Notes under the pieces: generated by a model | The model's input: only the letters and a program-made list of their open reading frames with translations | Databases searched by the model: none | Told to the model about the DNA's origin: nothing | Translations under genes and position numbers: made by a program | Part shown: positions 1,219 to 7,494 of the stretch, one piece after another | Position numbering within the stretch: the first letter of the stretch is position 1 | How the letters are laid out: each line of letters begins with the position of its first letter | NCBI GenBank assembly: GCA_964349945.1 | Contig: CAYGIH010000001.1 | Location: forward strand, 361,218 to 372,580 | Length of the DNA stretch: 11,363 nucleotides | Reading direction: 5' to 3' | Source of the DNA: an uncultured Candidatus Saccharibacteria bacterium | GTDB lineage: Bacteria; Patescibacteriota; Minisyncoccia; Phycocordibacterales; Zambryskibacteraceae

Positions 1219-2211
1219 TTATTTTATCGCATTTCCAAGCTTTACCACATGCTCCACTAATGTGTGTGTATAACCCATTTCATTGTCGTACCATGCGAGG
1301 ACTTTCACCAAATTTCCCCCAACTACTCGAGTGAAGTTTAGGTCAGCAATAGAAGCATGAGCTGAATCACGAACATCAGAAGACACAATTGGTTCGCTCG
1401 TCACCTCAAAGATATTTTTCCACTTTTCTGTCTTCGATGCTTCTGTGAGGATTTTATTTATCTCTTCTACTGTTGTATCTCGTTTGGTTATAAAAGTAAT
1501 ATCTGCGATAGAACCAATAACTGTTGGCACACGTATTGATATACCATCAAACTTTCCATCCAGTTGTTTGAGTGCTTTTCCGACTGCAATCGCTGCCCCT
1601 GTAGAACTAGGTACAATGTTTTGTGCGGCTGCTCTACCTTCTCGGAAATCCTTTTTGTTTGGACCATCTACAATTCCTTGGCTTGCTGTGTATGAATGTA
1701 CAGTATTAAGAATTGCTTTTTCTACTCCAAGCGCTTCATCAAGGATAGCCAACACTGGTGAAGCTGCATTTGTAGTACAAGAAGCATTAGATGTGATGAT
1801 ACTGGTCTCAAATTTGTCTTCATTTATACCCAAGAGCACCGTGGCTCCTTCTATAGTAGTTGGTTCGTCTTTCATAGGCGCGGTCACCACCACTCTCTTT
1901 GCCCCCGCATCAATATGATCCTTGGCTAATTCATATTTGGTATAAAAACCAGTAGATTCAACTACTACATCTATATCCAAATCCTTCCAAGGTAAATTTT
2001 TGGCCTCTTTTTCAGATAAAAACTTTACTCCTTCTAGACTCACATCACTCTGACCATAAACAGTGTCATATTTTAGAAGATAAGCAATATTCTCTTTATC
2101 TCCGAGGTCGTTTATGGCCACCACCTCTAACTCTGGTCGTTTTAAAGCCAATTTATAAAATGCTCGACCAATTCGGCCAGCGCCATTTATGGCTACTCTC
2201 GTTTTTTTCAT
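1219..2211 (-). CDS. gap: Glyceraldehyde-3-phosphate dehydrogenase, type I
   Basis: 330 aa. 'RVAINGAGRIGR' Rossmann/NAD motif. Catalytic 'SNASCTTNAASP' (ASCTTN with the active-site Cys). Typical length. ATG at 2211..2209 with AAGGA immediately upstream. Only 4 nt from the rpiB start. Confidence 0.93.
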   Translation of the reverse strand: MKKTRVAINGAGRIGRAFYKLALKRPELEVVAINDLGDKENIAYLLKYDTVYGQSDVSLEGVKFLSEKEAKNLPWKDLDIDVVVESTGFYTKYELAKDHIDAGAKRVVVTAPMKDEPTTIEGATVLLGINEDKFETSIITSNASCTTNAASPVLAILDEALGVEKAILNTVHSYTASQGIVDGPNKKDFREGRAAAQNIVPSSTGAAIAVGKALKQLDGKFDGISIRVPTVIGSIADITFITKRDTTVEEINKILTEASKTEKWKNIFEVTSEPIVSSDVRDSAHASIADLNFTRVVGGNLVKVLAWYDNEMGYTHTLVEHVVKLGNAIK

Positions 2212-2225
2212 CCTTATATTATAAC

Positions 2226-4553: not shown

Positions 4554-4735
4554 GGATTAATTGTTTTATACTGTTTGTAAAATTACGGACTTAGTGCCTA
4601 TTGTATGAAAAAATGGAGACAAAAAACTGTGGATAACCATTTCTTTTGACTCAAAAAATAAAAAGCTCCAACTGTAAAGATGTCTCTTAAAATAGGAGTA
4701 GTCTAAAGGTCAAAATTAGCTAAAAAATCCTAAAA

Positions 4736-5206
4736 TTATTGAGGCTCTGACAAAAAATCACCGACTGAAATACTGTGTGCGTCGCAAAATCCACCAGGTA
4801 GTTCGAGGACCAAATTGGCTGGTTTAGAAGGATAAAACATCGTTGGATATGTGTCTGGAGAAACATTTTTTTCTATAAAAACAATCTGATTATCTTGTAT
4901 CCAAACAATATCTATTGAGAATTTCATATCCTTCATCCAGAATCCATGCTTGTCTGGCTCATCGAAAATAAAAAGCATACCTTCGTTCTCCTTCAATTCA
5001 CCCTTGTCACTTAATCCTCGCTTTTTTTCAACTAAAGTTTCCGCAACAGAAACAAAAATTGGGATATCTTTTACTAAAACAGTCTTTTTTTGTGTTGTTT
5101 TAACCAAACAGTTTACTGAATCACAATGATAAGGCAAAAACCAAATGCTTAAAGTTAAAAGTACTGCTGTCATCAATAAGACAAAAACTTTTTTCTTGAA
5201 ACTCAT
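4736..5206 (-). CDS. Secreted/membrane-anchored DUF192 family protein (unknown function)
   Basis: 156 aa. N-terminal hydrophobic signal/anchor 'VFVLLMTAVLLTLSIWFL'. The 'AETLVEKKRGLSDKGELKENEGMLFIFDEPDKHGFWMKDMKFSIDIVWIQDNQIV' segment matches the DUF192 pattern (..RGLM.R..L....GMLF.F.......FWMKNT...LDI.F.D..G.I). ATG at 5206..5204. Confidence 0.68.
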   Translation of the reverse strand: MSFKKKVFVLLMTAVLLTLSIWFLPYHCDSVNCLVKTTQKKTVLVKDIPIFVSVAETLVEKKRGLSDKGELKENEGMLFIFDEPDKHGFWMKDMKFSIDIVWIQDNQIVFIEKNVSPDTYPTMFYPSKPANLVLELPGGFCDAHSISVGDFLSEPQ

Positions 5207-5230
5207 ATATTAATTATACATTCAATAATC

Positions 5231-5257
5231 AAAAAACTCCCTGAAGGGAGTTTTTTG
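5231..5257 (-). terminator. Rho-independent terminator hairpin (perfect 12-bp stem, 3-nt loop, T/A tracts on both sides; potentially bidirectional)
   Basis: Plus strand reads AAAAAACTCCCT-gaa-AGGGAGTTTTTT. On the minus strand this gives stem GGGAG plus a U-tract about 36 nt downstream of the RRM gene stop (5293). Confidence 0.85.
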
Positions 5258-5292
5258 ATTAACGTGTGTGAGCCTTGCGACCCACTCAAGCA

Positions 5293-5577
5293 TTACATAG
5301 GACGTCGATTGTCTCTAGGAGCACGAGGCTCTAGAGGACGAGCGATGTTTACGGTAAGTTTTCTTCCTTCGAAGTCTTGTCCGTTCCACATGTTGATAGC
5401 TGCATCAGCACCGTTCTGATCCGCCATTTCGACGAAACCGAAACCTTTGCTTCTGCCAGTCATACGGTCGATGATAATCGCTGCTGATACAACTGATCCT
5501 GCTTTTGCGAATGCATCGCGTAAAGCAGCTTCAGTTGTTGTATAAGGGATTCCACCAACGTATAGCTTTGTAGGCAT
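5293..5577 (-). CDS. RRM-type RNA-binding protein (single RNA recognition motif, glycine/arginine-poor short tail)
   Basis: 94 aa. RNP2 'KLYVGGIPY' and RNP1 'KGFGFVEM' are in the canonical positions. ATG at 5577..5575, preceded by the purine-rich 'GAAAGAAGAAT'. GC content (~48%) is higher than the surrounding genes (~38-40%). Confidence 0.9.
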   Translation of the reverse strand: MPTKLYVGGIPYTTTEAALRDAFAKAGSVVSAAIIIDRMTGRSKGFGFVEMADQNGADAAINMWNGQDFEGRKLTVNIARPLEPRAPRDNRRPM

Positions 5578-5694
5578 ATTCTTCTTTCAAATTTGCCAGC
5601 CTTTAAATTAATTATGTAAGCGCTGGACTCTTCTCTCTCACACACTCTTCGGATTTCCCTAGGAAGCATAGAACGAGAAACTTACATACTCTCT

Positions 5695-5723
5695 ATCATA
5701 TACCTTTTTTTCTCTTTTGTCAA
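5695..5723 (-). promoter_or_regulatory. Sigma70-like promoter for the RRM gene: -35 TTGACA (5723..5718), 17-nt spacer, -10 TATGAT (5700..5695)
   Basis: Read directly on the minus strand: GGTTGACAAAAGAGAAAAAAAGGTATATGATAGAG. Predicts a TSS near 5688, hence a ~110-nt 5' UTR before the ATG at 5577. Confidence 0.55.
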
Positions 5724-5754: not shown

Positions 5755-7494
5755 CTATTCACCTATATCATGTTCAATCTCTTTCATCTGTTTATGAATC
5801 ACTTTTTCTGCATCTTGAATATTTTGTCTGAACCTCTCTATGATAACTGCTTCTTCTTCAGTTAATCTTCTTCGACTCTTGGTCTTCTCAAGTAAGTGAA
5901 TGCTATCTTCTATATCTTCCTTGAGTAAGGCAAGTGCTTTATCTACCATATGTTCAACATCATGGAGCTCTCTACCAACTTTCTTTCTCATTTGTCTAAC
6001 TTTGTTGTATCCATAAAGGGCTAAAAAAATTAAGAAGAATATCAAGGCCAAAAGTGGGATGGCGAGAGAGAAGAATTTAGTGAGACCAACTCCAATTGAT
6101 TCAAACCAACCAGCATTCACCAATACTACCTTTGAAGTTGAATGTAGGCTTTCTGCCCCTCGACTGTCTATGGATACAGCGGTTAGTTTATAAACACCAC
6201 TCGTGAGTTTGCTTCCGTCTATAGAACCAGAAAACCCTCCTGCGCTATCCGTGTTCACTATTATAGACACTTCATCACTACCAGTTTTGTTCATGATGAT
6301 ACGCACTTGATTACCTATAGCACCCTTGCCATGAACAATCAGTGGATCATTGCCTGAAACCTTCTCTGTATAAGAAGTAATAATTGGTGACTCTATACCA
6401 GTAATAGAAAAGTTTGTAGACGCAGTAGAGAAATTCCCAGCATAATCAAAAGCTTTAGATACAAGAGTGTGGATACCTGGACCAAGGACTGGTGCACGAT
6501 AAACTCCTGTGCCATCATCCTCCCATATAACAGGGGCAAGTGAATCAATTTGGATTGAATAATTTTTAACTCCGGATGTGACGTCTGTAGCTGAAAGACT
6601 AAAGCTTGGTCTTGGTTCGGTCGAATCAGAAGATGGAATCTCCTTCACACTAAAGTTTTCTGGAGGTACAGTATCAACTCTAAACATATAATGTGCTGGC
6701 TGACCCCAACCTTTCGAATTCTTTAATTGCACATGCATATACCAAATACCATCATCAGTGTTGGCAATTTGTTTGGAGCTGATTGGTGGAGCATAGACGA
6801 TTGTCCCTTCAGAAGTTGGTTCCTTGCCTGCTAGTAACCGCACCGATGTTATGTCTGGAGAAAGTTTCCATGAGAATGTCCCAATTTTACTTGTATACCA
6901 TGTGCCTTGAACAGGATACTCGCTTGAATTTATTACTGGTGGTTTAGGCACTCCTGCCACCACGGCTGGGGTATCAATTACAACTGGTGCTGGTTCTGCT
7001 GCTGAAGAACTCTGTAAAGTAAAGGTGGCTGTATTTTGATTTATAAGAATATTCGTACCATTACCATCATTGGCTAGTAGTTGTGATGCTCCGAATCTTA
7101 CAGGAGCTTCGCCTTGTCCGATAACTCTAAAATTAATGGTAACTATCCTACCAGCAGTACCTTGAAATCCTGGATTAGGCACAACCCCTTCGAAAGTTAC
7201 TGTACCTGAATTATTTGAATATGTAGGTTCTGTTACCCATAGACTCAAAATAGAAGAAGTTTTAGAAACAGAAACAACTTGTAATTTATCTACAGGGAAA
7301 GTGACAGTACCAGAAACAGCATTAATAGCTTGATTAGTAGAAGTGACATAAACATTTACAGGAAAAGTTTTTCCTGTTTGATAAACGCCCACGCTAGGAC
7401 TTAATCCAAGAGTATTGGCAAAGGCAAAAAGCGGAAAAAGAAAAAATAGAACAAGAGCTATAGAAACATTTTTAAAATGTATGAAAGAACACAT
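5755..7494 (-). CDS. Type I membrane protein: signal peptide – cohesin-like domain – 3 Ig-like beta-sandwich domains – TM helix – ~85-aa charged coiled-coil-like cytoplasmic tail
   Basis: 579 aa. Signal peptide 'VSIALVLFFLFPLFAFA'. The N-terminal domain is paralogous to the upstream 260-aa protein (INAVSGTV..P.D / GFQG / LLANDGNGT). Later domains carry the 'AxDxAGNxS'-type Ig motif ('AFDYAGNFS'). TM 'FFSLAIPLLALIFFLIFLALYGY'. Tail 'NKVRQMRKKVGRELHDVEHMVDKALALLKEDIEDSIHLLEKTKSRRRLTEEEAVIIERFRQNIQDAEKVIHKQMKEIEHDIGE'. ATG at 7494; 37-nt overlap with the upstream gene. Confidence 0.6.
   Translation of the reverse strand: MCSFIHFKNVSIALVLFFLFPLFAFANTLGLSPSVGVYQTGKTFPVNVYVTSTNQAINAVSGTVTFPVDKLQVVSVSKTSSILSLWVTEPTYSNNSGTVTFEGVVPNPGFQGTAGRIVTINFRVIGQGEAPVRFGASQLLANDGNGTNILINQNTATFTLQSSSAAEPAPVVIDTPAVVAGVPKPPVINSSEYPVQGTWYTSKIGTFSWKLSPDITSVRLLAGKEPTSEGTIVYAPPISSKQIANTDDGIWYMHVQLKNSKGWGQPAHYMFRVDTVPPENFSVKEIPSSDSTEPRPSFSLSATDVTSGVKNYSIQIDSLAPVIWEDDGTGVYRAPVLGPGIHTLVSKAFDYAGNFSTASTNFSITGIESPIITSYTEKVSGNDPLIVHGKGAIGNQVRIIMNKTGSDEVSIIVNTDSAGGFSGSIDGSKLTSGVYKLTAVSIDSRGAESLHSTSKVVLVNAGWFESIGVGLTKFFSLAIPLLALIFFLIFLALYGYNKVRQMRKKVGRELHDVEHMVDKALALLKEDIEDSIHLLEKTKSRRRLTEEEAVIIERFRQNIQDAEKVIHKQMKEIEHDIGE

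Follow-up and report, generated by a model that had tools for sequence, protein, structure and literature searches.

The stretch of DNA considered here (the window, 11,363 nucleotides (nt) in full) carries on its minus strand a gene for a small protein with a single RNA recognition motif (RRM). The 5' leader predicted upstream of this gene is proposed, with moderate confidence, to be a dedicated cis-regulatory RNA of a strongly transcribed RRM unit, most likely exerting autogenous and/or cold-responsive translational control. The outcome of the analysis is a defined and widely conserved RNA element, represented by a covariance model and 63 instances and tied to a highly conserved small protein. 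Comparison of related leaders supports strong selection on the leader as a structure, and such selection fits post-transcriptional control. The original prediction, made from the letters of the window, had described the gene as post-transcriptionally regulated, and this part of it is in keeping with the structural selection seen by comparison.

Architecture of the leader

When ~35–40 Patescibacteria loci/species were compared, conserved strings were found at fixed positions within the 160 nt preceding the ATG. Their order is the -10 box, then (A/G)UGUAAG-UU(U)CUC, a variable insert, GAGA(A/G), a short linker and CUUACA, the last lying 35–47 nt before the ATG in every locus that carries it except L037 (55 nt). 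In the window, three putative helices (P1, P2 and P3) and the regions between them are placed as follows, together with the coding sequence (CDS) that they precede:

5578..5688, minus strand: predicted 5' leader, ~111 nt; covariance models R1, R2 and R3 match 5575..5691
5681..5688, minus strand: 5' strand of P1, (U)AUGUAAG, reading AUG-UAA; 8-nt perfect inverted repeat with 5613..5620
5675..5680, minus strand: 5' strand of P2, UUUCUC; pairs in relatives, with changes mostly to G-U/A-U
5636..5674, minus strand: apical extension of P2, a variable hairpin in the minimum-free-energy fold; ~13–60 nt in relatives
5630..5635, minus strand: 3' strand of P2, GAGAAG; placed by pairing in relatives
5622..5626, minus strand: 5' strand of P3, CCAGC, just before the 3' strand of P1; placed by covariation
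5613..5620, minus strand: 3' strand of P1, CUUACAU(A), inside the hairpin loop of P3; placed by the inverted repeat
5601..5612, minus strand: loop L3, A/U-rich, between the 3' strands of P1 and P3; consensus of relatives UUAAAAUAAAG (alignment A7)
5596..5600, minus strand: 3' strand of P3, GCUGG; placed by covariation
5578..5595, minus strand: A-rich stretch reaching up to the ATG, with a purine-rich ribosome-binding site that is only weak; left unpaired by minimum-free-energy folding
5293..5577, minus strand: RRM CDS, 94 amino acids (aa), with a short Arg/Pro-rich tail; Pfam RRM_1 profile match

The core of P1 joins AUGUAAG (5687..5681) to CUUACAU (5620..5614) and reaches 8 base pairs (bp) when U5688–A5613 is included, and P3 is specific to the clade of the window. 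Formed together, P1 and P3 would make an H-type pseudoknot, in which loop 1 is the P2 domain, loop 2 comprises 1–2 nt and loop 3 is A/U-rich and ~12–13 nt long in the window. Loop lengths of 1–2 nt and ~12–13 nt are sterically compatible with the simultaneous formation of both helices. From the end of the predicted pseudoknot to the start codon there are 18 nt of open, A-rich sequence with a weak Shine-Dalgarno match. Folding of the region 5578..5688 and a search for structure conserved across relatives had been recommended by the original prediction, and a conserved three-helix element with a covarying P3 was indeed found.

In some relatives the interval between the pseudoknot and the RRM start is expanded. 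A ~125-nt imperfect hairpin (-32 to -47 kcal/mol) stands there in five loci (L175:1442-1569, L085:10793-10921, L093:290-417, L101 and L165:193-315), and a 26-nt hairpin is found in L102, L140, L142 and L106. These hairpins could be either an additional regulatory domain or a small element that has been inserted.

A coding role for the leader was considered and rejected: the 69-aa open reading frame (ORF) at 5460..5669 runs into the RRM CDS in another frame and begins in the non-conserved variable hairpin, and the RRM protein begins with M-x-x-KLYVGG in every relative.

Covariation and the case for a pseudoknot

Since MAFFT alignments (A1, A2 and A8) misaligned P2 and the variable hairpin, alignments produced by covariance models were used instead. 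Alignment A7 comprises 63 sequences from genomes and metagenomes, 52 of them distinct. Among the distinct sequences, P3 shows double-sided changes at 5/5 pairs with 98.8% of cells paired, and the covariation score of the whole structure reaches 0.30, compared with 0.153 ± 0.008 in shuffles (0/500 reach it). Sliding the pairing partners by 1–3 columns lowered the score to 0.05–0.12 and pairing to 38–55%. The 17 genome-derived sequences, which had not been selected by any pattern, gave a similar picture: P3 was 100% paired with double changes at 5/5 pairs, the whole-structure score was 0.432 versus 0.174 in shuffles (0/500), and slid controls left 28–63% of the whole structure paired. In addition, P3 is recovered independently by RNAalifold.

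In relatives, P1 is 95–98% paired (98% in the genome-derived set) with a nearly invariant sequence, and P2 is 85–91% paired (85% in the genome-derived set) with a sequence that is almost invariant as well; covariation therefore neither supports nor contradicts these two helices. Some qualitative support for P1 comes from the distant relatives L019, L020 and L026, which lack P3. These loci appear to retain a 5'-terminal helix around the UUCUC/GAGAA helix with a different P1 sequence, such as UCGUAAG/UUUACGA or GUCGU/ACGAC, as judged by eye and by duplex folding.

Several observations weigh against a pseudoknotted, translation-controlling leader. Within the clade of the window, covariation in P1 and P2 is almost nil; their pairing rests on conserved complementarity, which makes the pseudoknot a topological deduction. 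The pattern by which the metagenome sequences were selected prescribes part of P1 and part of P2, so that only the P3 statistics are unbiased in that set. The single-sequence fold of the leader is no more stable than its shuffles (z = -0.59), although single-sequence folding is uninformative here, because the predicted structure is a pseudoknot and the signal emerges only by comparison. Furthermore, the predicted energies of the two nested alternatives lie within ~1–2 kcal/mol of each other (P1+P2: -21.3 to -22.7 kcal/mol; P2+P3: -23.0 kcal/mol), and a switch between P1+P2 and P2+P3 is as possible as a pseudoknot. Finally, the sequence preceding the ATG is predicted to stay open in any state of the pseudoknot, so that it is not evident that RNA alone would simply occlude the ribosome-binding site.

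Covariance models, gene association and known RNA families

Model R1 was built from three sequences and R2 from the 13 resulting hits, and R3, with P1 and P2 nested, was aimed at the distant leaders termed group 2 below; calibration was shortened and the E-values are rough. At 5575..5691 of the window the three models score 146, 91 and 70 bits, respectively. In 469 kb of RRM-centred loci, R2 returned 17 true matches, each immediately upstream of an RRM ATG and none elsewhere, and in 36 RRM loci from outside the Patescibacteria it returned none.

Metagenomes were scanned with the pattern TGTAAGTTTCTC-N35-65-SSSCTTACA, which requires no gene, and 93 matches were obtained. R2 matched 50 of these, 47 with E <= 0.04 and three weakly (E = 0.12–0.67). 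An RRM gene, detected by tblastn, follows 46 of the 47 stronger matches, and the remaining one is cut by a contig end. The three weak matches have no RRM gene; nor have the 43 pattern matches that the model did not recognise, which are for that reason regarded as chance. Altogether, the element was found 63 times by covariance model, directly upstream of RRM genes only and nowhere else in ~1 Mb.

Searches of Rfam 15, including the Chlorobi-RRM motif (RF01697), gave no match in the leader (5578..5691) at E <= 1, and the leaders of nine relatives likewise matched no Rfam family at this threshold. The only matches close by fell below threshold and concern the terminator region; among them, an RNAI-like one at 5227-5325 (25.5 bits against a gathering cutoff of 47) was discarded, as it consists of just the two hairpins 3' of the gene. 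Searches of the literature collection consulted found no described leader motif of Patescibacteria or of RRM genes, no described Patescibacteria regulatory RNA linked to RRM proteins, and no publication combining Patescibacteria with RRM; the survey of 224 candidate structured RNAs (Weinberg, 2017) mentions neither RRM genes nor Parcubacteria. The leader is a new candidate RNA motif that lies outside any Rfam family and within the known class of leaders of RNA-binding-protein genes.

The compact pseudoknotted fold and highly conserved nucleotides, reminiscent of small pseudoknot riboswitches, together with the lack of a match to any known family, could suggest a riboswitch or another RNA that senses a small molecule or ion and controls the RRM gene. 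This is considered very unlikely, given that the element precedes RRM genes only and never metabolic or transport genes, that its conserved nucleotides lie mostly within helices rather than in junctions, and that no expression platform is evident in the window, neither a terminator nor a helix pairing with the ribosome-binding site.

A shorter leader variant in related lineages

Sixteen loci of Adlerbacteria, Nomurabacteria and Paceibacterota type carry a shorter leader, GUUCGAGUAAG-U(U)CUCC ... GGAGG-GUCGCC-UUAC-G..GAAC, referred to as group 2. In this variant P1 is lengthened outward by GUUC/GAAC, P3 is absent and the linker GUCGCC is invariant. A search for these leaders with R3, filters off, retrieved only L017 and L038 (E = 0.2–0.4); kinship to the window motif therefore rests on shared positioned strings rather than on score. 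Twelve group 2 loci each contain a single copy of the string GTAAGT-N0-2-CTC-N5-35-GTCGNCTTAC, ending 33–57 nt before the ATG, and no further copy is present in the 175 loci compared, with a chance expectation of ~1e-3 by our own calculation. Group 2 leaders are likely homologous to the window motif.

These counts also bear on the view that the leader has no function of its own, its conservation reflecting recent ancestry and the promoter and terminator being chance matches. Such a view could appeal to the z-score of the single-sequence fold (-0.59) and to the promoter-like and terminator-like sites of the window, which are no commoner than in shuffles. On the other hand, P1, P2 and CTTAC hold their positions even though protein identity drops as low as 57–65% and the GC content of the flanks varies between 36 and 60%; the sequence of P3 has changed many times with its pairing kept, and slid-partner controls fall to 38–55% paired; and all 12 matches to the core string are correctly placed. 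Already contradicted by the covariation of P3 and the core-string counts, this view is hardly credible.

Group 2 leaders show a further feature. In L022–L046, at ~60 nt upstream of the ATG, P1's 3' strand and the next 9 nt are complementary to the 16 nt before the ATG, as in the pairing of TACGCGAA with TTCGCGTA in L032 and L043. The mean duplex energy is -6.9 kcal/mol, compared with -5.5 kcal/mol for swapped partners (permutation p = 0.0026) and -3.3 kcal/mol for shuffles. This suggests an alternative, anti-P1 helix in group 2 that may hide the initiation region. In the clade of the window, which has P3, this complementarity is lacking (mean -3.9 kcal/mol; the window itself, -1.4 kcal/mol). 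A helix sequestering the ribosome-binding site was rejected as the mechanism in the window for this reason.

Promoter, transcription start and terminator

Four further elements frame the leader and the gene:

5718..5723, minus strand: -35 hexamer TTGACA; TTGAC(A/T) is kept with a 17–18-nt spacer in relatives
5695..5700, minus strand: -10 hexamer TATGAT; kept in sequence and position in relatives
5268..5285, minus strand: short hairpin with a GCAA loop in the 3' untranslated region (UTR), between stop codon and terminator; placed by folding
5226..5261, minus strand: intrinsic terminator, A6, CUCCC-UUCA-GGGAG and U6 with further flanking pairs; placed by folding, inverted repeat and relatives

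The original prediction of a near-consensus sigma70 promoter holds: TTGACA-N17-TATGAT (5723..5695, minus strand) has 11/12 matches to sigma70 and is the top-scoring site of the whole window. Promoter-like sites are no more frequent in the window than in shuffles (27 versus 29.8 ± 5.7), and a single match is for this reason weak evidence when taken alone; the promoter is accepted as real because it is conserved across relatives. Among the upstream regions of 54 distinct relatives, the -10 hexamer scores 6/6 in 32 and 5/6 in 18, the -35 hexamer is TTGAC(A/T) and scores at least 5/6 in 39, and the spacer is 17–18 nt in 48. The gap from the end of the -10 to the first base of P1 is 7 nt in 36/54 relatives and 6–8 nt in 46/54; the -10 positions were set by a crude best-hexamer rule, and in relatives outside the 6–8-nt gap another site was picked.

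In the window, 117 nt separate the end of the -10 from the ATG. With the -10 at a fixed distance from P1, a leader of ~111 nt (5688..5578) with P1 as its 5'-terminal helix is predicted, in agreement with the upstream distance of ~110 nt proposed originally. Transcription would start at ~5688, 7 nt past the -10 and 0–2 nt before P1.

At the other end of the unit, the terminator arms (5226-5242 and 5245-5261) are fully (100%) complementary and form a perfect hairpin of 15–17 bp with a predicted energy of -32.6 kcal/mol (z = -5.96). The hairpin had originally been given as perfect and 12 bp long; its perfection stands, and its arms are longer than described. A simple terminator scan missed it because its U-run pairs with its A-run. 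Of the 38 relatives whose downstream sequence is readable, almost all have an A-tract, GC-hairpin and T-tract directly behind the RRM stop codon. Many also carry a small tetraloop hairpin between RRM stop and terminator, and in L004–L013 such hairpins, with GNRA or UUCG tetraloops, are analogous to the GCAA-loop hairpin. Within the GCAA-loop hairpin of the window stands GGGUCGC, similar to the conserved linker GGUCGCC of the leader, possibly by coincidence.

Comparison thus supports promoter, leader, CDS and terminator as a self-contained transcription unit throughout the clade, with positions conserved in dozens of species. Since no terminator was found between the -35 and the stop codon (5755) of the 579-aa gene upstream, some read-through transcription is possible. 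The monocistronic unit envisaged by the original prediction is accordingly borne out by sequence comparison as regards its own conserved promoter, leader and terminator, and is qualified by possible read-through from the 579-aa gene.

The 5' helix and the 3' hairpins might merely stabilise an abundant mRNA against 5'-end-dependent and 3' exonucleolytic decay, with no feedback involved. In line with this, P1 begins 1–2 nt from the predicted transcription start, two stable hairpins lie at the 3' end, and codon bias and the near-consensus promoter suggest high expression. A protective hairpin, however, needs no invariant sequence, no covarying P3 around the 3' strand of P1 and no conserved A/U loop, and a stabiliser of general use ought to appear on other abundant mRNAs as well, whereas this element is confined to one gene family. 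Stabilisation as the sole role is therefore judged unlikely.

The RRM protein, its composition and its codon usage

The 94-aa protein matches Pfam RRM_1 (PF00076) over residues 5-74 (E = 8.5e-22, 77.3 bits, gathering cutoff 20.7). Its translation, MPTKLYVGGIPY...RSKGFGFVEM...ARPLEPRAPRDNRRPM, contains both RNP2 (KLYVGG) and RNP1 (KGFGFVEM), and its best matches in the PDB are RRM domains. The single-RRM protein with both RNP motifs was thus correctly recognised from the outset. Against NCBIfam NF058537 (Rbp_regulator, RNA-binding regulator, equivalog domain) it scores 94.8 bits (E = 2.9e-27), under the curated cutoff of 100 bits; by these profile scores it is an ordinary RRM_1 member and a relative, rather than a certified member, of Rbp_regulator. 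Full-length identity is at least 78% with each of the 120 best-scoring clusters listed, and the protein starts with M-x-x-KLYVGG in all relatives. Inside the CDS, a 30-nt imperfect inverted repeat (73% complementary, arms 16 nt apart) was noticed at 5476..5551.

The statement that bacterial RRM proteins are uncommon went too far. Searches returned close homologues from Patescibacteria, Acidobacteriota, Binataceae, deltaproteobacteria, Verrucomicrobia and Chloroflexota, and bacterial RRM proteins have also been studied in Bacteroides (PMC13370968).

The elevated GC content reported for the gene (~48% against ~38–40%) is confirmed, with 47.0% in the RRM CDS compared with 39.4% in the window and 34–44% in the nine other ORFs. 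GC1/GC2/GC3 are 0.568/0.495/0.347, and GC3 of the other ORFs is 0.255–0.31. The excess is mostly a matter of amino-acid composition (Gly, Ala, Arg and Pro), at codon positions 1 and 2. Codon choice was compared with the other nine ORFs of the window, which contains no ribosomal-protein genes: C is preferred over T in 17/23 two-fold pyrimidine-ending codons of the RRM gene, compared with 239/881 in the reference (Fisher p = 5.7e-6), and the glyceraldehyde-3-phosphate dehydrogenase gene (gapdh) is without this bias (0.27). A C-ending bias in two-fold codons is the usual signature of translational selection, and high expression of the RRM gene would fit both this bias and the near-consensus promoter. 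The earlier proposal that GC and codon deviation reflect high expression is in keeping with the C-ending bias; the bulk of the GC excess goes back to amino-acid composition, with GC3 only mildly raised. A foreign origin of the gene was rejected: the RRM CDS lies 1–14 GC points above its flanks in nearly all relatives, in genomes ranging from 36 to 60% GC, and the excess is thus a feature of the gene itself and not of a recent transfer.

Proposed mechanism and alternative explanations

In the proposed mechanism, P1 would close the 5' end of the transcript and stack on P2 with its variable hairpin, and P3 would enclose the 3' strand of P1 to give an H-type pseudoknot whose A/U-rich loop 3 lies along P1. 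The RRM protein would bind its own leader at the invariant P1/P2 strands, at the conserved GUC(G)C linker, or at the A/U-rich loop and the tract downstream of it. Once bound, it would limit access of the 30S ribosomal subunit and thereby exert negative feedback on translation. The 5'-terminal helix P1 might additionally stabilise the mRNA, and a temperature-dependent refolding of the cspA kind could be layered on autoregulation.

Autoregulation is suggested by the exclusive association of the element with the gene of an RNA-binding protein. The invariance of P1, P2 and the linker, while P3 drifts freely, argues for sequence-specific recognition rather than for pairing alone. Furthermore, a pseudoknot combined with an unstructured A/U-rich initiation region is the classical layout of an autogenous repressor: in phage T4 gene 32 and in ribosomal-protein leaders, a pseudoknot nucleates translational autorepression by the gene's own product and lies before an unstructured A/U-rich ribosome-binding region. 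The window resembles the gene 32 leader in its predicted pseudoknot followed by an open A-rich initiation region, with no homology between the two. A direct precedent is provided by the leaders of the Bacteroides rbp genes.

The leader could instead be a cspA-like RNA thermosensor, with different folds at low and at normal temperature (the P1/P3 pseudoknot as opposed to the nested alternatives), that renders the RRM chaperone cold-inducible with no protein ligand, a reading that is compatible with autoregulation and is rated as rather unlikely. P2 is shared by two nearly iso-energetic nested conformers, and RRM proteins are cold-adaptation factors in cyanobacteria (PMC9333190) and in Bacteroides, where the authors ask outright whether the rbp 5' UTRs are thermosensors (PMC13370968). 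Several homologues are also labelled 'cold-inducible RNA-binding protein' by JGI, these being annotation labels only. Against a thermosensor, the folds predicted at 10, 20 and 37°C contain the same helices, with the start region open throughout, and the strict invariance of the P1/P2 sequence exceeds what a thermometer needs.

A further observation concerns the 5' strand of P1: in the window (5682..5687, minus strand), its letters AUG-UAA are those of a start codon and, immediately after it, a stop codon, 1–2 nt from the predicted 5' end of the transcript. In relatives this strand reads AUG, GUG or UUG followed by UAA (UAG in L014), with L015 and L018 as exceptions, and the group 2 equivalent reads GAG-UAA, which is not a start codon. 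P1 might accordingly be invariant for more than structural reasons and represent a leaderless start-stop mini-ORF, in a lineage whose neighbouring genes look leaderless too, on which loading of a 70S ribosome would melt P1/P2, remodel the pseudoknot and couple ribosome availability, and hence growth or cold state, to RRM translation. This idea is regarded as quite improbable; if true, the start-stop mini-ORF would amount to a novel kind of translational sensor in bacteria. Unless it holds, the leader brings no new regulatory principle.

Comparison with known systems

The closest parallel to autogenous control by the RRM protein is found in Bacteroides, where rbpA, rbpB and rbpC have 5' UTRs of 122–155 nt, are controlled negatively through auto- and cross-regulation that acts partly via the 5' UTR, and contribute to cold adaptation (PMC13370968). 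As in Bacteroides thetaiotaomicron, the window combines a small single-RRM protein with a long leader in a bacterium lacking Hfq and CsrA. Unlike these genes, the window gene belongs to another phylum, no relationship of sequence or structure between the leaders was detected, and Rfam covers neither. Neither a pseudoknot nor a defined RNA motif has been reported for the rbp UTRs of Bacteroides, and regulation of the window gene is inferred only.

The Chlorobi-RRM motif (Rfam RF01697), identified by comparative genomics, is a candidate cis-regulatory RNA upstream of RRM genes in one phylum (Weinberg et al., 2010; PMC2864571). Like the element described here, it is a structured RNA that precedes RRM genes in a single phylum and was found by comparison; it belongs to another lineage, and the window and nine relatives do not match it at E <= 1. 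In cyanobacteria, the rbp genes (rbpA1, Rbp1) encode cold-regulated single-RRM proteins and carry conserved cold-response boxes in their 5' UTRs (PMC9333190). These elements are short sequence boxes, in contrast to the covarying putative pseudoknot of the window, and cyanobacterial Rbp proteins often have a Gly-rich tail, whereas the window protein has a short Arg/Pro-rich one. As far as the cited account covers it, the cspA 5' UTR of Escherichia coli, ~160 nt long, is autoregulated, folds in a temperature-dependent manner and precedes the gene of an abundant small nucleic-acid-binding protein (PMC13370968). The cspA product has a cold-shock domain instead of an RRM, the two RNAs are unrelated, and no temperature-dependent refolding is predicted for the window leader.

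Altogether, these comparisons extend the emerging picture from cyanobacteria and Bacteroides, in which long leaders govern bacterial RRM proteins that act as abundant RNA chaperones or regulators. The window would add the first explicit covarying pseudoknot, as predicted here, for the leader of a bacterial RRM gene.

Patescibacteria, also known as CPR, account for a large part of bacterial diversity; most have not been cultivated, and their tiny genomes contain few regulators that can be recognised. The element offers a testable handle on post-transcriptional control in this group, and both RNA and protein are small enough for in vitro work that needs no culture.

Genomic context

The closest genome loci (97–64% identity) belong to metagenome-assembled genomes named Minisyncoccia, Parcubacteria, Zambryskibacteria, Adlerbacteria, Nomurabacteria, Paceibacterota and Patescibacteria; Minisyncoccia is placed in the phylum Minisyncoccota. 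The genome of the window is a member of the Patescibacteria (Parcubacteria/Minisyncoccia). RRM genes at a greater distance (45–62% identity) are found in Pyrinomonadaceae, Binataceae, deltaproteobacteria, Chloroflexota and Akkermansia. Metagenome contigs also encode the identical RRM protein, next to the same genes.

Four large minus-strand ORFs of 579, 260, 451 and 555 aa, almost without family matches, occupy the region upstream of the RRM unit (5755..11210). One of them contains dockerin and Big_6 domains and two have weak matches of the OmpL47-type beta-barrel; the four look like lineage-specific surface proteins. Downstream, the minus strand also carries rpe, rpiB, gapdh, a class II ribonucleotide reductase gene and a DUF192 gene. 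The class II (B12-dependent) reductase gene is preceded by a non-coding gap of 182 nt (4554..4735), in which no Rfam match was found.

The DUF192 gene begins differently from the RRM gene. At 5204..5220 (minus strand), TGTATAAT, with a -10 at 5218..5213, is followed by 6 nt and then by the ATG at 5206, which is the layout of a leaderless mRNA, given a start that is itself uncertain (one gene caller set it 11 codons further in). The same -10/N6/ATG arrangement was seen in 11/11 close relatives that keep the RRM-to-DUF192 synteny, and in 19/39 loci overall. As the DUF192 gene looks leaderless in the window and in related genomes, a long leader is not the default here. A comparable arrangement was seen at gapdh (2209..2223), where TATAAT (2223..2218) is followed after 6 nt by the ATG (2211).

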